Origin: an uncultured Methanosarcinales archaeon
Lineage (GTDB): Archaea; Nanobdellota; Nanobdellia; Woesearchaeales; DSVV01
DNA: 64,000 bases
NCBI GenBank assembly: GCA_964556185.1
Contig: CAZKVI010000003.1
Location: 2,089 to 66,088 of the forward strand
Reading direction: 5' to 3'
Both the position numbers and the translations under genes were made by a program. Below, in pieces: positions 27,927 to 60,844 of this stretch; within the stretch, counting starts at the first letter, position 1; each line of letters begins with the position of its first letter. Under the pieces are notes generated by a model. The model did not search any database, had not been told where the DNA came from, and saw only the letters and a program-made list of their open reading frames with translations.

Positions 27927-28235
27927 ATGCAAAAAGCAAGAATAAAGATAGCAAGTACAGACATAGACAAGATTAATAATACTTGTAGGTATATTTCTGA
28001 TATAGCTGATAAAACTGGTGTTGATATGCGTGGTCCTATTCCTTTACCAACTAAAAAATTAAAATTAACTACTCGTAAAACTCCTTGCGGAGACGGAAAA
28101 GCTTCCTGGGAAAGATACGAAATGCGAATTCATAAAAGATTCATTGATCTCGGCTTAGATGAAAGAGCTTTAAGATTGGTTATGAGGGTACCAATACCTG
28201 AAGGCTTGAACATAGAAATTGAAATGATTGATTAA
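27927..28235 (+). CDS. rps10: 30S ribosomal protein S10 (uS10)
   Basis: KARIKIASTDIDKINNTCRYI... Conserved EF1A-S10 gene order. Confidence 0.9.
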   Translation: MQKARIKIASTDIDKINNTCRYISDIADKTGVDMRGPIPLPTKKLKLTTRKTPCGDGKASWERYEMRIHKRFIDLGLDERALRLVMRVPIPEGLNIEIEMID

Positions 28236-28297
28236 GTTTGTTCTTGATTAACTCTTAGAATTGAGGCCGAAAGGCTCGAAGTCGAAGACTTCGCCCG

Positions 28298-28336
28298 CCT
28301 GAAGGCTTGAACATTGAGATTGAAATGATAGACTGA
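28298..28336 (+). repeat. degenerate 39-bp direct repeat of the S10 gene 3' end (about 34/39 identical to 28197-28235)
   Basis: cctgaaggcttgaacatTgaGattgaaatgatAgaCtga versus the gene end cctgaaggcttgaacatagaaattgaaatgattgattaa. The 62-bp insert between the copies holds a GAA-triloop hairpin. Confidence 0.7.
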
Positions 28337-29356: not shown

Positions 29357-29443
29357 ATAAAGGGCTTGACTGACCAAAGGGAAGGAAACCCTTCTTGCGT
29401 GTCGACCGAGCGTAACCAGTCGCCACGGGTGAGATTGAGCCCA
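29357..29443 (-). ncRNA. GC-rich structured segment immediately 5' of tRNA-Lys; also begins GGGCUCA; identity unknown
   Basis: Local GC above 50% with stems (AAGGG...CCCTT). No T-arm, so not called as a tRNA. Confidence 0.2.
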
Positions 29444-29485: not shown

Positions 29486-30367
29486 TTATCCTTGATAAAA
29501 ACCAATTAACTGTCTTTGTCTCTTAACATGTCTTAATTTTCTTAAGGCTTTTACTTCGATTTGTCTTATTCTTTCTCTTGTTAAATCAAATACTTGACCA
29601 ATCTCTTCAAGAGAATAATGACGAGGATGATCAATTCCATATCTCATTTTCATAACTTTTTCTTCTCTGGGTGTTAATTCAGCAAGTACACTTCTAACAG
29701 CCTTTGCTAAATCAGAATCCCCTACATTTTCATCAGGTCTTCGAACACTAGCTCCTTCTATAAAATCACCTATGGTTGCATCTGATTCATCACCAACTTT
29801 TTGCTCTAATGATAATGGTTCTCTTGCAAGCCTATAAATATCTTCAATTTTTTCAACTGGTTCACCTAACCAATCTGCAATTTCTTCAGAAGTTGGTTCT
29901 CTACCAAGATCAGTAACAAGTTTTCGAGCCGTTCTTCTAACTTTAGTAACCATTTCTAATTTATAAATTGGAATTCTTATTGTTCTTACTGTAGCTTCTA
30001 TTCCTCTAATAACACTTTGTCTAATCCACCAAGAAGCATATGTAGAAAATTTATATCCTCTTCTATATTCAAATTTTTCAACAGCTCTTATTAAACCTAA
30101 ATTACCTTCTTGAATTAAATCACCAAGTGGCAAGCCTCTATATTGGTATTGTCTTGCAATACTAACAACTAGTCTTAAATTGCCTTTTATTAAATCTTCT
30201 TTAGCTGTAGCTGCTTCATAAGGAGTGCCTTCTTCCATTGTTGTAGCTAATCTAACTTCATCATCTCTAGATAATAATGCTACAGCCCCCATTTGATTCA
30301 TATACTTCCTTAGAACTCTAGGATCATCTCTATATCTTGGCCCACCTTGATAATGACTAACACCCAT
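29486..30367 (-). CDS. bacterial-type RNA polymerase sigma-70 family factor (regions 1.2, 2, 3, 4)
   Basis: Region 1.2 [28 protein letters not shown]. Region 2 [58 protein letters not shown]. Region 4 [15 protein letters not shown]...[29 protein letters not shown]. Confidence 0.8.
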
Positions 30368-43208: not shown

Positions 43209-43300
43209 TACTAAAAGTGATTAATTTTCGTACAAATTAATCACTTTTGTATATACCAGAGTGTAAAATAATTTGACTTTATTTTACACTTTAAGTATAT
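43209..43300. promoter_or_regulatory. palindromic operator/promoter module, copy A (AAAAGTGATTAATT-n9-AATTAATCACTTTT, TATATA, AGAGTGTAAAATAA-n6-TTATTTTACACTTT)
   Basis: Same module as 50043..50122. AAAGTG/CACTTT half-sites flank a TATA box. Confidence 0.6.
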
Positions 43301-44927: not shown

Positions 44928-45063
44928 TTAATAGCGCCAGGGACGGGAGTTTCAGTAACTTCAAAGAGTTACACCCCATCAGTTGACATTTGAACCCACG
45001 TGACATTCAGGGGACGAATGTCAACTGGATCATCAGTCCAGCGTCTTGAGCCAGACTCGACCA
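44928..45063 (-). tRNA. tRNA-like gene with Ile(GAU) anticodon arm interrupted by two insertions (possible non-canonical introns) or a pseudo-tRNA
   Basis: Minus-strand TATA about 25 bp upstream. Acceptor GCCAGGG/CCCTGGC, anticodon arm CTGGA-CUGAUGA-TCCAG, GGGTTCAAAT T-loop. A 9-bp hairpin insert and a 40-nt insert interrupt it. Confidence 0.3.
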
Positions 45064-45100
45064 CCCTGGCCTCGCCAACAGTAAAGTTTATATACTTGTT

Positions 45101-45146
45101 TGAATATACAATTAATTAAGGGGACGAATGTCAATTTGGATTATCA
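45101..45146. repeat. degenerate duplicate of the anticodon-arm/hairpin segment of the adjacent tRNA-like gene
   Basis: ggggacgaatgtcaaTttggatTatcaAtccag versus ggggacgaatgtcaaCtggatCatcaGtccag at 45002-45033. Confidence 0.6.
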
Positions 45147-45224
45147 ATCCAGTTTCTTTGGCCAACTTGGCCTTTTTTCTTTTTCAATATTCATTTTATA
45201 TATTGGCTCTATAAAGAACCATTA

Positions 45225-46755: not shown

Positions 46756-47571
46756 CTACTTAAAGTCATGTTCTTTGTATTTCTTAAGAAGTCCTAAAAT
46801 TTCCTTATCTTTAATATCTTTCAATTTTAAAATAATATTATTTATATCATCGCCTTCTTCACTATTGTCTTCTTTTCTAAAACTTATTGAAATTTTATCA
46901 TCTTGCCAAATAAAATATCTCAATATCTCAATATCTTTATCATTAGAGTTGTCCTCTAGCCATTTTCCAAGCTTTTTCTTTAATTTAAATAAATCTTCAT
47001 CATATTTTGGTGTTTTAGTATAAAGTGCTCTAGCGAAACCCTCTAATCCAATAATACTATTAAGTTTTTTCTTTGTTTTTCTTGAATAATATTCATAGTC
47101 TGTTCTACTAATTGGTTTTTCCTCAATAATCCTTTTAATTATTTGTTTTTCTTTTTTTGTGAAAATTTGAGATAGCCACATCTGTAGATTTCTCTCTGCA
47201 TAGATTTTTTGCTTGTCAATTATTAATTCAGATTTTTTTAATCTAGCTAATTGCAATTCAAACTCTTGTTTAAATTCATCATAATCAAGATTTCCTTTAT
47301 TACTAAACTCAGGCAATTGTTTATCAATATTATTCTCTTCAAATATTATTCTTGTAAAAGCTAATATTTGGCTAAAAATCTTTTTTTTAGGTGTTTTTTG
47401 ATATAATTCTTCAATATCTAAGTCATACTTATAAATTAGAAATGGAATAGCTTTCAAATATCTTATATTCTCAGTCTTCAAAATAGATAAAATTAGTTTT
47501 TCTTTGCTTTTATCTGCACCAAGCATCCTGTAGCCTGCATCAGTAAGCTTTTTCTCTATTGCTGTTGCCAT
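46756..47571 (-). CDS. hypothetical protein, second gene of the cassette operon
   Basis: Overlaps the upstream nucleotidyltransferase gene by 16 nt. No recognised domain. Confidence 0.4.
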   Translation of the reverse strand: MATAIEKKLTDAGYRMLGADKSKEKLILSILKTENIRYLKAIPFLIYKYDLDIEELYQKTPKKKIFSQILAFTRIIFEENNIDKQLPEFSNKGNLDYDEFKQEFELQLARLKKSELIIDKQKIYAERNLQMWLSQIFTKKEKQIIKRIIEEKPISRTDYEYYSRKTKKKLNSIIGLEGFARALYTKTPKYDEDLFKLKKKLGKWLEDNSNDKDIEILRYFIWQDDKISISFRKEDNSEEGDDINNIILKLKDIKDKEILGLLKKYKEHDFK

Positions 47572-48176
47572 TTTTTAACCTCATTTATTATTTCTTTATT
47601 TTCCATATTCCATTCTTTAAATTTTATTTCAATTAGATCTAATAATTTTTGTTTATAATTTGCAACAATAGATGTTTGCATAGTTTCTTTATATCTACTA
47701 ACAAGTTCTTTAAGATCTATTTTCTCTTTTTCAAAAATTCTTTTTACATCATCAAAGTCTCTAGAATCACCTCTTGCTAATTTACTTATTATAACATCAT
47801 ACAAAGATAATGTATAAAGTTCAATCTTACCAAATGATTGAATATGTTTGGATTTTTCTAAACAATCTGGAAGTAAATCAGTTCCTAAAATATATGAACT
47901 ATGAAAGACATCAAAAGCCAAACCTTCTTGTGTAATCCAGCGAATATGTCCTGTTTTCTCAAATCCAATCTGTTCAAATATCTTACAGATATATTTGTAT
48001 TCTTTATCTGAGTGGATATTAATATCTATGTCTAATGTTGATTGTTTGATATTAAGTATTGTTAATGCTGTTCCACCTAATGCATACATCTTAGTTTTCT
48101 TTTCAATAAATTTTGATAGGGATTCAAGTAATTCAAAGAGTTCATTAGCATTAATTTCTTTTTTATTGTGAGGCAT
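47556..48176 (-). CDS. AbiEii/DUF1814-like nucleotidyltransferase (putative toxin/abortive-infection component)
   Basis: YALGGTALTILNIKQSTLDIDINI matches the GGTAL...S.DIDf nucleotidyltransferase motif. Confidence 0.45.
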   Translation of the reverse strand: MPHNKKEINANELFELLESLSKFIEKKTKMYALGGTALTILNIKQSTLDIDINIHSDKEYKYICKIFEQIGFEKTGHIRWITQEGLAFDVFHSSYILGTDLLPDCLEKSKHIQSFGKIELYTLSLYDVIISKLARGDSRDFDDVKRIFEKEKIDLKELVSRYKETMQTSIVANYKQKLLDLIEIKFKEWNMENKEIINEVKKWQQQ

Positions 48177-48544: not shown

Positions 48545-48600
48545 AGAAAAAAACGCCACGACCCGGACTTTCAAACCACAGGTTTGAACCTTTTGGTTTT
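48545..48600 (-). repeat. degenerate partial duplicate of the tRNA-Ser 3' end with an internal hairpin insertion
   Basis: tatcccggttcaaa...tccgggtcgtggcg versus the tRNA 3' end tatcccggttcaaatccgggccacagcg. No valid cloverleaf. Confidence 0.5.
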
Positions 48601-48649
48601 TGAACCGGGATACAATATGAGCTTTGCTCATATGTACAAAAAATTAAAA

Positions 48650-48772: not shown

Positions 48773-48897
48773 TGGCAGTGGCGGGATCTGAACCCGCGGC
48801 TTCTAGATCGCCCAGATATAAAGTTTAATCATCGGCATGAGCCTCATCACTCAAATCTTATGAGTCTAGCACTCTAACCAGGCTGAGTTACACTGCC
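48773..48897 (-). tRNA. tRNA-Met/Ile2(CAU), elongator type, with 50-nt intron
   Basis: Acceptor GGCAGTG/CACTGCC, D-stem ACTC/GAGT, anticodon stem CTAGA/TCTAG, loop CU-CAU-AA, T-arm GCGGG-TTCAGAT-CCCGC. Intron contains GUGAUGA. Confidence 0.7.
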
Positions 48898-48914: not shown

Positions 48915-49334
48915 CTAGTGGTCTTTTAAAAAGCTTACTATCTTTTCCTGTACAGATTCAGCTTCTCCTTCTGCATACTGGCCACCTGGCCAATGTTGAT
49001 AACCATCATTTGGTATCCTTGGAATAACATGAATATGAGCATGGAATACTATTTGTCCAGCTACTGCTTTGTTATTCATTATCAAATTAACACCAGATGC
49101 TTCAGTAGATTCAAGTATTGCAGTAGATATCTTCTTAGCAACAGCAATCATATTCTTAGAATCTTCCTCTGGCAAATCAACAATATCAGCATAATGCTTT
49201 TTTGGAATAACTAATGTATGCCCAGGATTATTTGGAGCAATATCTAAGAATGCAAACACATTGTCGTCTTCATAGACTTTTTTACAAGGAATATCTCCTT
49301 TGATAATTTTGCAGAATATACACTCATCTGTCAT
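48915..49334 (-). CDS. HIT-family (histidine triad) nucleotide hydrolase
   Basis: CIFCKII...; HAHIHVIP histidine triad. Confidence 0.9.
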   Translation of the reverse strand: MTDECIFCKIIKGDIPCKKVYEDDNVFAFLDIAPNNPGHTLVIPKKHYADIVDLPEEDSKNMIAVAKKISTAILESTEASGVNLIMNNKAVAGQIVFHAHIHVIPRIPNDGYQHWPGGQYAEGEAESVQEKIVSFLKDH

Positions 49335-49375: not shown

Positions 49376-49879
49376 TTAATAACTACCTTGCATTTCTTTG
49401 ATTTTTTCTTTAAGAACTTCGATTGTTCGTGCATTATCTTGTTGTTGTAATAATGTACCACATTCAGGACACTTAAACTCTAACTCTGTACTTTGCTCAA
49501 AATCTAATCTAGCGCAAGCATTTGTGCATAAAAAGAAACATCCTTTGTTTGATTCTTCTCTTTCAAGTCTTTCTTGTAGTTTTTCTAAGCGAGTACTATG
49601 AATAACAGAAGCAACATCTTTAAGTCTTTTAGGAAAATAAGTCCAATAACTGATATAATAACCTTTTTTAGAGTCTTTTTTTCTTTTATATGTAGCAAGA
49701 TTCATACTATGCATTCTATATAAGATATTTCTTACTTGATGGATCTCAATCTCAGTTTTCTCAGAAATTATAAACTCAGAAATATTTTTCCTATTTTTAA
49801 GGAAATCTACAATAGGTAAACAGTCTTCACCGATTGCATTTGTTATTGTATCTTGAGCCATCTTATTTGTCATACGCAT
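49376..49879 (-). CDS. tfe: transcription factor E (TFE / TFIIE-alpha homologue)
   Basis: N-terminal winged helix plus C-terminal zinc ribbon CFFLCTNACARL...CPECG. Confidence 0.8.
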   Translation of the reverse strand: MRMTNKMAQDTITNAIGEDCLPIVDFLKNRKNISEFIISEKTEIEIHQVRNILYRMHSMNLATYKRKKDSKKGYYISYWTYFPKRLKDVASVIHSTRLEKLQERLEREESNKGCFFLCTNACARLDFEQSTELEFKCPECGTLLQQQDNARTIEVLKEKIKEMQGSY

Positions 49880-50042
49880 AAGTCTCTTCCCCCATTCTCG
49901 GAGCGACAGAGTCCTATGTTTTGGAGTCTTGTTTTACTTCCCCAACAACACATTACTCTCAATTCCCCGTATAGTTCCTCTGGTAACTTATATAAAAACT
50001 TTTTCATTGTGTCATATATACGTTTTCTGAGGTTTCTGTTTA

Positions 50043-50122
50043 TACTAAAAGTGATTAATCACTTTTGTATATACAAAAGTGTGAAATAATGAAATTATTT
50101 TGCACTTTAAGTATATATATAG
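50043..50122. promoter_or_regulatory. palindromic operator/promoter module, copy B (AAAAGTGATTAATCACTTTT; CACTTTTGTATATACAAAAGTG; AAAGTGTGAAATAAT-gaa-ATTATTTTGCACTTT)
   Basis: Three overlapping perfect or near-perfect palindromes sharing AAAGTG/CACTTT ends. Homologous to 43209..43300. Confidence 0.6.
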
Positions 50123-50269
50123 CGAAGTTAGAAGTTCAACAAGAACTTCTCATTATTACCCATATACTGGATAATAACCTTCATATCAATATTAATGCCA
50201 TAGGTTATATATAAACCTTTCGGTTATGTAGTTACTTTAGAGGAGTTAATATATAAAAGAAAGTATATA

Positions 50270-50895: not shown

Positions 50896-51297
50896 TCATC
50901 CACCAATCTTTTTATCTATATCTTCAGCTATTTCTTTAAGACTATCAAAAGTCCTATGCATATCCTTCTCTAACTCATCAATTAATCTACTCAAGTTGTG
51001 AACTCTTAGAATATAACCTTTCTTTTCCTGCACTACAATCCCTGAATCCATTAACTTATGCAAGTGATGCACTACAGTGCCCCTAGATAATTGCAATCTA
51101 ACAGCTAATCCATCACTAGAAATAGGCTCATCTTTCTTTGCTTGCTTTAATAATTCAATAAATATTCTAAAACATGATCGATCTTTATCACGTAAACTAA
51201 ATAATCCAAGAGAAGTACCAAACCACTGCAATTTCTCATTAATATTACTTCTCACAGGCCTTCTAATCTTGATTATAGTGATTCTTCGTTGCTCCAT
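50896..51297 (-). CDS. ArsR-like winged-helix transcriptional regulator
   Basis: CFRIFIELLKQ...SDGLAVRLQLSRGTVVHHLHKLMDSGIV. Confidence 0.5.
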   Translation of the reverse strand: MEQRRITIIKIRRPVRSNINEKLQWFGTSLGLFSLRDKDRSCFRIFIELLKQAKKDEPISSDGLAVRLQLSRGTVVHHLHKLMDSGIVVQEKKGYILRVHNLSRLIDELEKDMHRTFDSLKEIAEDIDKKIGG

Positions 51298-58715: not shown

Positions 58716-58772
58716 GTCACAATACAAACATTTTTAAATATTCTAAATTTCATTTGAAAAAGACCAGATATT

Positions 58773-58938
58773 TGTGGGGGTAGCCCGTAAGAAGATTCTT
58801 TGGGTTCCCTAGAGCAAAGTCTGGTCAAATGCGCAGGACTTAAGATACACTGAAGACAGCCTTCACGGCAAAGTCTTTGTTTTGAATTAGACATCCTGTC
58901 ACTTAGTGTGTTCGGGGGTTCGAATCCCCTCCCCCACA
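58773..58938 (+). tRNA. tRNA-Leu(UAA)-like gene with two introns (about 29 nt near the D-arm and about 48 nt in the anticodon loop)
   Basis: Acceptor GTGGGGG/CCCCCAC. AGTCTGGTCAAATGCGCAGGACTTAAGA matches the archaeal Leu D-loop and anticodon arm; TCCTG is found 48 nt on; long variable arm; T-arm GGGGG-TTCGAAT-CCCCT; discriminator A. 166 nt = about 87 mature + 78 intron. Confidence 0.5.
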
Positions 58939-59036
58939 TTTTATTCTTTATTTTCTATTTTATGTGCGTACTGCTTTGCAAAGCAAATGCAGTACTCGCT
59001 GACTTTTTCCCAAGTTTTTACGAACGTAAAAAGCTG

Positions 59037-59058
59037 GTGGGGATCATCCTCCCCCACA
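59037..59058 (+). repeat. degenerate duplicate of the tRNA-Leu 3' end (ggtggggATCATcctcccccaca), separated from the tRNA by two strong hairpins (58968..58995, 59015..59032)
   Basis: Compare the tRNA 3' end gggggTTCGAATcccctcccccaca. Hairpins GTACTGCTTTGC-AAA-GCAAATGCAGTAC and TTTTTACG-AA-CGTAAAAA. Confidence 0.55.
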
Positions 59059-59083
59059 TTTTCTTTTTGATTTTGATTAAGAA

Positions 59084-60844
59084 TTAAGGTTCAGTTGGTT
59101 CATCTAGTGATGCACTTGTTTCTAAGCCACTTCTTCTTAAACCTTTAAGAGTATAAGTTGGATCTTCAAGATAACTCTCACACTGTGCTTTAATTCCAAG
59201 AGCAGCCATAAGCATTTTATCTTTATCATCGTAAATTTCTCTAATAGAATCTCTATCTTTCATTGTTCTTGGATTAAATACTTCTGATAAAATTCCATCA
59301 AAAGAAAATTCATCTGCTGATTCAGATTGTTCTGTTACTTCACCAAATCCTCCTTTTGCTTTATAAGTTTCATAAAGCCTATGGATTTTATAAACTTTAT
59401 AATGGCTTAAGGAAGAAGAATCACTTGTATGGTAAGAACACAAATGATCAATTATTTGGTTTGTTTCTTCTAAAGTTTTTCTTACTAATACAAAGTTTTG
59501 AACATCTGGAATTTCACGACCTTCTTCGGCTTTCCATCTTCTGTAAGCATTTACAAGAATAACATTTTTGTATAATCTGTATAATCTTTCAAATCCTGCA
59601 TAATATTTTGTTCCTTTTCTAACATTTATTATTGGGTGTTTTTCAGCTAATGCATTTGCTCTTTCCTTTAATTGAGTTCTTATATCTCTTGTCCCATGTA
59701 AATCTTGTCCACTATATGCTGCAATAATTTCATCATAAGTTATTTCTTCAATTGACTCACCATCATCAGTTAATCTTTTTCTTTTCTTACTTCCATGTTC
59801 TCGTCTGCGAATTTCATCAGTATTTGCATGACAATCTGCAAACTTAACCATTATAGCTCTTTCTATATCTTCTTCTTTTATTGCTCTCTCTTTTCCTCCC
59901 CAACAAATTATTCCATCCCAGTCACTAGGTCTAAATATTTTGTTTACAGAATCATAATAATTTTGTTTAGTCCCCTTTGTCAAAAGATAACTAGTAACAG
60001 CAACTCCTCCAATCATTTCAACCATTGTACTATCAATAGCACCACCAAGGTCTTTCATGTAATTTTCTAAACAATTATAAATCCCATGATCGACAAAAAT
60101 ATCAGCTACTCTTTCCCCTTTTGTCATTAATTTACCTCTAACTTCAGATTTCTCTGAGAAACCATGTTTTCTTATTTCATCCCTCTTTTCTTGGATAAAT
60201 TTCTTCTTCTCAATAATTTCTTCTTCAACTCCCTCTAGTTCTTCCATTCTTTCTGCAACCTTTGCTTTATAACCATCTCTTCTTTTCCCTTCTAATTGTT
60301 TAATACTTCTTGTTAAGAAACCATGTCTTTCTATCAATCCACCAAGTTCTTCATGTTCAGCCATATTATAAATTCTAACAGTGTCTCTGATATAATGATC
60401 AATAAATTCTTCAGCAGTATCATGATATAATGCTGCAATAATTGTTGTAAGATCAGTAACACCAGCTTTGATGAGTGTTCTTGTAACTCTTAGTGGATGT
60501 TGTACAAAAGGTGCTCCTGTTAATTTTCTATCTGGTGCAATTCTATATTTCTCAAAACTATCATACAATGCAACTTTTAAGAATGTTTGTTCATCATCTT
60601 CTAAAGCAGAATAAGCTTCTTCTTGACCTCTATAAAGCATTCCAACAACGCTTTCGAGTTTTTCTTCTTTGTCTTTAAAATCAACTTTAAAGCTATCATC
60701 AGAATCTTTGTTTGTAAAGAAAGCAACCATTCCATGATCTATTCGACTTAAATAAAGCTCATTTCTTCCAATAAGCCTTTCAAGATTTACATGGCCACTA
60801 TGTGGACTTGGACTAACACCCATCTTCTCTTCAAATAATCTCAA
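59084..60844 (-). CDS. HD-domain phosphohydrolase related to the RelA/SpoT (p)ppGpp hydrolase domain, with N- and C-terminal extensions
   Basis: PFVQHPLRVTRTLIKAGVTDLTTIIAALYHDTAEE matches the Rel/SpoT HD signature HPL..A..L......D..T..AALLHD..ED. Confidence 0.6.
   Translation of the reverse strand: MRLFEEKMGVSPSPHSGHVNLERLIGRNELYLSRIDHGMVAFFTNKDSDDSFKVDFKDKEEKLESVVGMLYRGQEEAYSALEDDEQTFLKVALYDSFEKYRIAPDRKLTGAPFVQHPLRVTRTLIKAGVTDLTTIIAALYHDTAEEFIDHYIRDTVRIYNMAEHEELGGLIERHGFLTRSIKQLEGKRRDGYKAKVAERMEELEGVEEEIIEKKKFIQEKRDEIRKHGFSEKSEVRGKLMTKGERVADIFVDHGIYNCLENYMKDLGGAIDSTMVEMIGGVAVTSYLLTKGTKQNYYDSVNKIFRPSDWDGIICWGGKERAIKEEDIERAIMVKFADCHANTDEIRRREHGSKKRKRLTDDGESIEEITYDEIIAAYSGQDLHGTRDIRTQLKERANALAEKHPIINVRKGTKYYAGFERLYRLYKNVILVNAYRRWKAEEGREIPDVQNFVLVRKTLEETNQIIDHLCSYHTSDSSSLSHYKVYKIHRLYETYKAKGGFGEVTEQSESADEFSFDGILSEVFNPRTMKDRDSIREIYDDKDKMLMAALGIKAQCESYLEDPTYTLKGLRRSGLETSASLDEPTEP

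Follow-up and report, generated by a model that had tools for sequence, protein, structure and literature searches.

In a 64,000-nt stretch of DNA from a Woesearchaeota (DPANN) archaeon with a tiny genome (~31% G+C; contig CAZKVI010000003.1, here called the window), the 3' end of a tRNA-Leu(UAA) gene is followed by a 120-bp insertion, made up of 105 bp of non-coding cargo and an exact 15-bp duplicate of the gene's terminus. Relatives carry the same locus with and without the insertion, and the two-hairpin module that makes up the cargo recurs, with its structure conserved, at other tRNA genes of related genomes. We read the insertion, with about even confidence, as a miniature, non-autonomous cassette that was joined into the tRNA gene end where a site-specific break had occurred. 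The mobility of the cassette, the enzyme that would move it and the part of the hairpins as recognition or structural features are what we infer from this pattern, which suggests a previously undescribed miniature DNA cassette targeting tRNA gene ends.

The tRNA-Leu gene occupies 58774..58938 on the plus strand, and all parts of the insertion are given on the same strand. The proximal repeat, CCTCCCCCACATTTT (58928..58942; direct-repeat family D1), consists of the last 11 nt of the tRNA plus TTTT, that is, positions 63-73 with 3 nt of the T-stem, the acceptor 3' strand and the discriminator, followed by four T of the trailer. The distal repeat (59048..59062) is a displaced copy of this 3' end lying on the ancestral flank, so that the extra segment can be given as 58943-59062 or, equivalently, as 58928-59047. 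The 15-mer occurs exactly twice in the window, where chance would give 0.07 occurrences, and two matches were seen in none of 100 shuffles; the edges of the repeat are sharp. An earlier note on this DNA, made from its letters alone, had described a degenerate copy of the T-arm and the acceptor 3' strand. The acceptor part of that claim stands, indeed as an exact 15-nt match beyond chance, while the T-arm part does not. The supposed decayed T-arm copy GGTGGGGATCAT scored 5 against the T-arm, with shuffle means of 4.1-4.5 (p ~0.3-0.4), and was rejected as similar only at shuffle level.

Between the repeats, the cargo begins beside the intact tRNA with a T-rich tail (58943..58967), whose other strand reads ...GCACATAAAAT, as it does in the copies at tRNA-Met and tRNA-Lys described below. 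Hairpin A follows at 58968..58995 (GTACTGCTTTGC-AAA-GCAAATGCAGTAC), with 12 bp, one bulge, a GC-AAA-GC apex and a GTAC...GTAC base. A conserved spacer of 18 nt (58996..59013; reverse complement TTGGGAAAAAGTCAGCGA, family consensus TTGRGMAAAASTCAGCGR) separates it from hairpin B at 59014..59033 (GTTTTTACG-AA-CGTAAAAAG), which has 8-9 bp and a T5 run on both strands, and the cargo ends in the linker CTGGTGGGGATCAT (59034..59047), which holds no demonstrable T-arm copy. GTGGGG of this linker pairs with CCCCAC of the distal repeat, and on the minus strand the resulting hairpin is followed by a T5 run and was scored as terminator-like. Folding of 58940-59066 gave z = -5.0, and none of 200 shuffles folded as well. 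Two hairpins of 12 and 8 bp after a tRNA-Leu-like gene had been noted earlier, and every element described there was found at its place; the cargo, put at about 95 bp, measures 105 bp.

The cargo has no ORF (open reading frame) of note. A search of the region with Rfam 15 scored only the tRNA, all other matches having E > 4 and lying far below the gathering score, and C/D-box and H/ACA motifs, sought by eye in the cargo, were absent. Several simple origins of the segment were considered and set aside. Tandem duplication is ruled out because the cargo does not recur past the second copy of the repeat. The cargo does not appear to be assembled from scrambled tRNA pieces, a suspicion raised by shared 7-mers, since no significant similarity to tRNA-Leu, tRNA-Ser or tRNA-Met was found on either strand. 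Nor is the proximal tail a recognizable captured flank, its similarity to the tRNA-Leu flanks of relatives being not significant. Since the proximal gene is complete, there is no need to take the cargo for an intron whose genuine 3' exon would be the distal copy.

Comparison with syntenic contigs of relatives shows filled and empty alleles of this site. The filled allele is identical to the window in L001-L003, three metagenomic contigs from different samples (JGI 3300009374; ENA SUTE22-1 and SCRA20-1). The close relative L009 shares 97.6% identity with the window in the upstream 166-aa gene and 84.5% in the convergent 586-aa gene. Its tRNA-Leu 3' end directly joins the short flank that precedes the stop of the convergent gene, and both the hairpins and the duplicate are missing. 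The same empty state was found in L010 and L013, and L012 and L015, the latter a 78% relative, show two further, different empty alleles, giving three in all (L009/L010/L013, L012 and L015). The empty-site relatives have neighbour-gene identities of 93-97% and 78%; in an empty version of the window allele the tRNA end would be joined directly to TTTTCTTTTTGATTTTGATTAAG. The flank after the distal copy in the window (59063-59083) matches the post-tRNA flank of L012 (p = 0.002), while the proximal tail matches no tRNA-Leu flank of any relative; the distal 15-mer therefore sits on ancestral DNA. On its right lies a convergent HD-domain-like gene of 586 aa (59084..60844, minus strand), whose stop is 21 nt past the distal repeat; this gene, syntenic in L001-L003 and L009, identifies the right flank as ancestral. 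The empty sites in close relatives support the attL/attR-like arrangement proposed in the earlier note, in that the tRNA-Leu end of syntenic relatives joins the very flank found after the distal copy here. An analogous case comes from a Nanoarchaeota genome (L008), in which tRNA-Leu is followed by 40 nt and a 16-nt duplicate that its close relative L007 does not have.

The same hairpin pair, which the earlier note had suggested looking for elsewhere, is present by tRNA-Met in L025 and L026 and by tRNA-Lys in L062, and is single-copy in the window. In L025 and L026, downstream of a HIT gene ~79% identical to the window HIT gene, a 17-19-nt tRNA-Met 5' fragment is followed by CCTTTTACGTTCGTAAAAGC, TTGAGCAAAACTCAGCGG, GTGTAAACATCCGC-TTT-GCGAATGTTACAC, TAACATAAT and the intact tRNA-Met. 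The reverse complement of the window cargo aligns to this module with a local score of 31 (shuffles 8.2 +/- 1.5, maximum 16), and the 16-nt core of hairpin B is identical as reverse complement. A consensus fold of the window and L025 copies keeps both hairpins, 6 of the 20 pairs being upheld by compensatory double changes. The covariance model built from these two copies found a third in L062 (51.8 bits, E ~1e-8), where it separates the intact tRNA-Lys(CUU) from a 5' fragment of that gene 17-19 nt long; here hairpin B covaries and the stem of hairpin A is completely different. The hairpin A stem of the window covaries with those of the L025 and L062 copies. L025 and L026 are 78% identical in the HIT gene, yet they agree at 44 of 45 positions across the fragment and the beginning of the module, which must therefore be under constraint or have spread recently.

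From these copies the module is about 75-80 nt long and runs from hairpin B through the 18-nt spacer and hairpin A to an A/T-rich tail. Its orientation is fixed in the four cases at hand (Leu, Ser, Met, Lys; the tRNA-Ser case has hairpin A only), hairpin A and the tail being always on the side of the intact tRNA; hairpin B, in each of the three full copies, is on the side of the displaced fragment. The duplicates measure 15 nt at tRNA-Leu and 19 nt at tRNA-Met and tRNA-Lys. Full copies number three, at three loci across the related genomes, one of them in the window; motif searches and the covariance model yielded no window copy other than that at tRNA-Leu. The sequence GAATTCTAT, which precedes the fragments in L025 and L062, was considered as a possible end of the element and rejected for L062, where comparison with the window shows it to be homologous host flank. 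Between the 166-aa gene and tRNA-Leu in L015 (1064-1150) and L016 (670-757), TTGAGCAAAGCTCAA and TTTACGTTAAC resemble the spacer hairpin and half of hairpin B. These pieces are in the opposite order and were not scored by the covariance model; they may be a degenerate module copy.

The tRNA genes concerned are rich in introns. The window tRNA-Leu(UAA) has a 31-nt D-arm intron (58785-58815, boundaries ambiguous by 3 nt) and a 48-nt anticodon-loop intron after G37 (58845-58892), both on the plus strand, and because of them ARAGORN and Rfam miss or under-score the gene. An intact tRNA-Leu(taa) was called by ARAGORN once both introns had been taken out, and Rfam matched part of a tRNA with 18.7 bits. 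The window shares the D-arm intron with L014, a 78% relative (Logan ERR15087788), whereas L009, L010 and L015 lack it. Directly upstream of the gene, 58716..58773 (plus strand) is the 3'-end remnant of a LAGLIDADG homing-endonuclease gene. The stretch 58716-58816 aligns with the 3' end of an L014 ORF, exon 1 and the D-arm intron with a score of 57 (shuffles 9.8 +/- 1.8), and 58716-58773 shows no relation to the sequence upstream of tRNA-Leu in L009, the closer relative. In L014 (1188-1820), this ORF is intact, encodes 209 aa with a weak precomputed LAGLIDADG_3 match, abuts tRNA-Leu and reads through exon 1 of the tRNA, stopping at the last codon of the D-arm intron; judged from this overlap, endonuclease gene and intron seem to form a single unit. 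Since remnant and intron match the distant L014 and not L009, there has been an exchange of alleles at this locus with a lineage further away.

The edges of the displaced fragments fall close to such introns. At tRNA-Met and tRNA-Lys the fragment stops with position 17, 3-4 nt short of the D-loop introns borne by the intact L025 and L062 genes. At tRNA-Leu it begins with position 63, and the tRNA-Leu of L015 has a T-loop intron at 59/60; inserts at that T-loop position are also found in the tRNA-Lys of L062 and in the tRNA-Ser fragment of the window. In all three module cases the fragment edges thus lie 3-4 nt from D-loop or T-loop intron sites of other alleles, which is a positional coincidence only. 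The tRNA-Met gene of L025 (2808-2948) and the tRNA-Lys gene of L062 (1040-1236, minus strand) have extra D-loop introns, the latter also a T-loop intron and three introns in all, while the window copies are without them; intron gain and loss is rapid among these lineages. The window tRNA-Met (48773-48897, minus strand) has a 50-nt intron in which GTGATGAGG and CGATGATTA resemble C and C' boxes. Some archaeal tRNA introns encode C/D-box guide RNAs, and this one could be another.

How could such a cassette arrive at a tRNA gene end? In the mechanism we consider most likely, a site-specific break would occur in the conserved T-loop/T-stem region (for the 5' cases, in that of the D-loop), and the cassette would be joined in, such that the complete gene end is kept and the other terminal copy of 15-19 nt is left on the far side, producing the attL/attR-like layout. 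Cutting and joining would be performed by an enzyme supplied in trans, since the cargo encodes nothing; candidates for the joining step, as we infer them, are an integrase, a transposase-like enzyme or break repair. As a side effect, the T-runs and hairpins may act as terminators between the two convergent genes. A more specific version, which we hold only tentatively and consider rather less likely than its contrary, is that ~80-nt two-hairpin cassettes of Woesearchaeota home to the D-loop and T-loop of tRNA genes and are mobilised in trans by a site-specific enzyme, possibly the flanking LAGLIDADG endonucleases. On that version, the D-loop and T-loop would be targeted as the most conserved spots of tRNA genes and the same positions as non-canonical introns of other alleles, and each event would leave one 15-19-nt duplicate.

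The miniature cassette is favoured because one contiguous unit is the whole cargo at three tRNA genes, with fixed polarity and ends just past hairpin B. A number of observations weigh against it. There are only three full copies, each from a different genome, and neither an autonomous relative nor a mobilising enzyme was found. The linker between hairpin B and the fragment is 14 nt at tRNA-Leu, 2 nt at tRNA-Met and ~8 nt at tRNA-Lys, and in the Leu copy the conserved tail (...CACATAAAAT) stops ~14 nt short of the repeat, where the Met and Lys tails abut the tRNA gene. The cargo ends (left ATTCTTTATT, right GGGGATCAT) are not paired by any inverted repeat, and this absence of terminal inverted repeats argues against a classical transposase. 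A cassette with a fixed att (attachment) core could not switch from the 3' end of tRNA-Leu to the 5' ends of tRNA-Met and tRNA-Lys. The duplications at the S10 gene, tRNA-Lys and a GAU-anticodon tRNA in the window carry unrelated cargo. Finally, with the endonuclease remnant and the D-arm intron shared with a distant lineage, the whole locus, cargo included, could be one foreign patch.

This last point leads to the rival that we take most seriously, although we would put it at perhaps one chance among several, namely that the segment is a scar left when one allele replaced another. The resident tRNA-Leu would have suffered a double-strand break, such as a LAGLIDADG enzyme might make near the T-loop or D-loop intron sites, and would have been repaired from a foreign allele, with copying running into the donor flank before end-joining. 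The module would then be the native tRNA flank of the donor and not itself mobile, and the last 11 nt of the resident gene would be the distal fragment. Such an exchange would account for the homology of the upstream region and D-arm intron to L014, with its intact LAGLIDADG ORF, and not to the 97% relative L009. It would fit the endonuclease gene adjoining the target in some alleles, the presence/absence polymorphism of the intron and the position of the fragment edges. Duplicates elsewhere also speak for it. The differences in the S10 duplicate are synonymous only, and the distal copy of L055 is the empty allele of L060; the fragment upstream of the GAU tRNA is ~80% identical and still foldable; and the tRNA-Ser fragment has a T-loop-intron-like insert and only transitions in its acceptor strand. 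However, a module that ends 2-14 nt from hairpin B at three tRNA genes, on opposite gene sides, is easier to understand as a discrete unit, and the reading needs unseen donors at several tRNA genes, no donor with the module as its native flank having been seen. The intact tRNA-Leu here is also without a T-loop intron, so that a T-loop cutter would not spare the donor, and no LAGLIDADG gene was found in the window besides the remnant at 58716-58773.

Two further explanations appear unlikely. A virus or plasmid of kilobase size could have integrated at the tRNA-Leu 3' end by a tyrosine integrase and lost its interior. Duplicates of tRNA 3' ends flanking elements of 9-23 kb are common in archaea (PMC9897764), and a direct repeat with a regenerated tRNA gene, together with empty sites in relatives, is the classical signature of such integration. 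Independent deletions, however, would not leave identical contents, and the contiguous module is the same at three tRNA genes. The repeat is just 15 nt long with sharp edges, the cargo holds no integrase fragments or coding remnants, the predicted attP junction had no match in IMG/VR, and neither the tRNA 3' end nor the cargo had one in IMG/VR, phage or plasmid collections. The earlier note had left the choice between a remnant of an excised element and a miniature element; the miniature element, being the whole cargo at two other tRNA genes as well, fits better, and the large-element remnant is the poorer of the two. Slightly less probable again, in our estimate, is that the segment is a selected host function, either a structured RNA or a bidirectional terminator or 3' untranslated region module between convergent genes, with the duplicate incidental. 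The strong fold (z = -5.0), the compensatory changes in both hairpins and a conservation far better than that of the neighbouring protein gene are what would be expected of it. So are the T5 runs on both strands at hairpin B and the terminator-like matches at the junction of linker and repeat, and, with the hairpin A apex read as TTT, the window and L025 copies both lie 35-50 nt downstream of a protein-gene stop. Yet close relatives do without the module, no Rfam family matches it, and inspection by eye revealed no TATA-like promoter of archaeal type on either strand. A host function would also leave unexplained the tRNA-terminal fragment at every copy and the fixed orientation to the intact tRNA. 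The miniature cassette thus stays our preferred account of the insertion.

The search for a recombinase or a parent element gave no candidate. Integrase, transposase, Cas1 and recombinase domains were absent from the cargo and from the 28 window ORFs scanned, as was PolB, and neither TnpA nor TnpB was found. The scan took in all ORFs of at least 110 aa in 43.3-64 kb except 48915-49334 (HIT), 49376-49879 (TFIIE alpha) and 50896-51297, while another ~28 ORFs of this minimum size, the majority of them before 43 kb, lay outside it. Of the three exceptions, the HIT and TFIIE alpha ORFs have precomputed Pfam matches on L001, and 50896-51297 has only faint or weak helix-turn-helix matches. In IMG/VR, the predicted attP junction, the module pattern and the tRNA-Leu 3' end had no match, while hairpin B alone gave 23 matches in unrelated contexts and the tRNA-Ser fragment pattern gave 6. 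The cargo had no match in plasmid collections and only a T-rich chance match in phages.

Terminal duplicates are found at four of the six tRNA genes of the window and at the S10 gene. At the end of the S10 gene (28197-28336, plus strand), its last 39 nt are repeated after a 62-nt cargo with two hairpins, GAGGCCGAAAGGCTC and CGAAGTCGAAGACTTCG, and all 5 differences in the duplicate are synonymous, including TAA/TGA. Among relatives with an identical S10 protein, L055 and L058 are filled and L060 is empty. The end variants ATTGATTAA and ATAGACTGA occur in swapped order in the window and L055, and the distal copy of L055 equals the empty-site allele of L060. The earlier note had named, as one possibility, a miniature element of the S10 type for the tRNA-Leu segment; the two share their architecture and the existence of filled and empty alleles, but their cargoes are not homologous.

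At tRNA-Ser(GGA) (48763-48650, minus strand), the region 3' of the gene (48554-48649, minus strand) contains a T-run, a look-alike of hairpin A and a tRNA-Ser 3' fragment. This hairpin-A-only version, GTACATATGAGC-AAA-GCTCATATTGTA, is the only window site besides the tRNA-Leu one to match the pattern GTAC-N-GCAAAGC-N-GTA. The fragment has an intact T-stem and a 31-nt intron-like insert in its T-loop, and its acceptor strand (TCGTGGC, compared with CCACAGC in the gene) has four differences, all transitions, so that it looks like the end of a different functional allele and not like random decay. Beyond the fragment by 380 nt lies, at 46756-48176 (minus strand), a DUF6036 nucleotidyltransferase gene (206 aa) with an overlapping 271-aa ORF of unknown family. 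The two look like a toxin-antitoxin or defence system, which an earlier insertion at tRNA-Ser may have brought in as cargo.

On the 5' side of tRNA-Lys(CUU) (29356-29237, minus strand), the region 29357-29442 (minus strand) holds a decayed 16-nt 5' fragment, GGGCTCAATCTCACCC, and then a 70-nt G+C-rich cargo with two predicted hairpins. This cargo is not similar in sequence to the module at the same place in L062; a T8-to-A change is common to both tRNA-Lys fragments. Next to this locus, a 293-aa ORF (29486-30367, minus strand) has counterparts in L027, L028, L029 and L062 with bacterial sigma-70 regions 2, 3 and 4 (precomputed Pfam). A sigma-70-like ORF is unexpected in an archaeal genome, and in relatives it is conserved beside the S10/tRNA-Lys locus. 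The fourth tRNA with a duplicate, an unannotated gene with anticodon GAU (44936-45180, minus strand), was called by ARAGORN only after removal of a 38-40-nt T-loop insert, and its variable region contains a 24-nt hairpin, to be read as a long arm or as one more intron. The gene is preceded by a ~80% identical and still foldable copy of its 5' half (D-arm and anticodon arm), which ends in a 16-nt exact repeat (45119-45134 = 45009-45024) and is followed by 46 nt with a TATA-like box and then by the intact gene.

The window encodes EF-1alpha followed by S10, TFIIE-alpha and a PUA protein as archaeal markers, and the best matches of its S10 and HIT proteins carry the names Candidatus Woesearchaeota or Nanoarchaeia. 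Its tRNA genes have long introns; Rfam detects four tRNAs and ARAGORN in default mode one, missing five of the six. Terminal fragments and multi-intron tRNAs thus confuse tRNA annotation in practice. Perfect hairpins of 13-15 bp sharing AAAGTGATTAAT..ATTAATCACTTT are found between genes at 43213-43292 and 50040-50152, one of them just downstream of tRNA-Ala, and may be another repeated palindromic element.

Partial tRNA duplicates usually mark integrated viruses or plasmids, whereas here the whole integrated element is a structured cassette of 105 bp, which recurs at different tRNA termini in related DPANN archaea, a group whose mobile elements are almost unknown. With duplicates at four of six tRNA genes and at S10, terminal duplication is a process that shapes these tiny genomes. 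If cassettes do home to the D-loop and T-loop, they would be a new type of miniature mobile element and direct genomic evidence for an arms race in which tRNA introns protect against DNA invaders. According to the idea of Randau and Soll, disrupted tRNA genes resist integration (PMC4390854). The fragment edges at intron positions and the adjacent endonuclease gene make this notion of introns and split genes as guards directly testable.

We found no description of 100-bp cassettes of this kind in the literature, where tRNA fragments are the attR sites of 9-23-kb elements (PMC9897764; Reiter 1989, Williams 2002 cited therein). The insertion shares with such integrase elements (PMC9897764) the intact tRNA, the foreign DNA, the direct repeat of the tRNA terminus on the old flank, the empty sites in relatives and the use of the tRNA 3' part. 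It differs in a cargo of 105 bp as opposed to 9-23 kb, in the absence of an integrase nearby (in the cargo and the 28 scanned ORFs), in a repeat of 15 nt as opposed to, for example, 44 bp, and in the presence of the same cargo at the 5' termini of other tRNAs. Because of these 5' copies, one att specificity cannot explain the family. The cis-mobilisable elements (CIMEs) of streptococcal integrative and conjugative elements (ICEs) are kb-sized, have att-type flanks and share att sites with a known parent ICE. The cassette resembles them in its att-type flanking repeats, its lack of recombination genes and its presumed mobilisation in trans, and is unlike them in its size of ~100 bp and its three different targets, CIMEs being kb-sized with a known parent.

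Among small elements, IS200/IS605 elements insert 3' of a short target motif without target duplication, and miniature inverted-repeat transposable elements (MITEs) have terminal inverted repeats and target duplications of 2-10 bp. Miniature IS200/IS605 elements and MITEs are, like the cassette, ~100-bp non-coding units with subterminal hairpins (A and B here) in which structure is conserved over sequence. Unlike the former, every copy here is flanked by a 15-19-nt duplicate; compared with MITEs, this duplicate is longer and terminal inverted repeats are lacking. Casposons, which are Cas1-solo transposons, target a conserved protein gene or the 3' ends of tRNA genes, tRNA-Leu among them, with target duplications of 14 bp (up to 35 bp) that are AT-rich at the 3' end, and solo remnants exist; they need terminal inverted repeats and encode Cas1 and PolB (PMC4779613). 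The duplication of ~14-15 bp at a tRNA 3' end is closely alike (15 bp here, positions 63-73 plus 4 nt), but the cargo is without terminal inverted repeats, no Cas1 was seen in the cargo or the scanned ORFs and the element is 100 times smaller. Intron homing with free-standing endonuclease genes normally replaces alleles cleanly and leaves neither terminal duplicates nor a hairpin cassette, unlike the case described here; the two are alike in the LAGLIDADG gene or remnant that abuts the tRNA, in the polymorphism of the intron and in edges that lie at the D-loop and T-loop intron positions.

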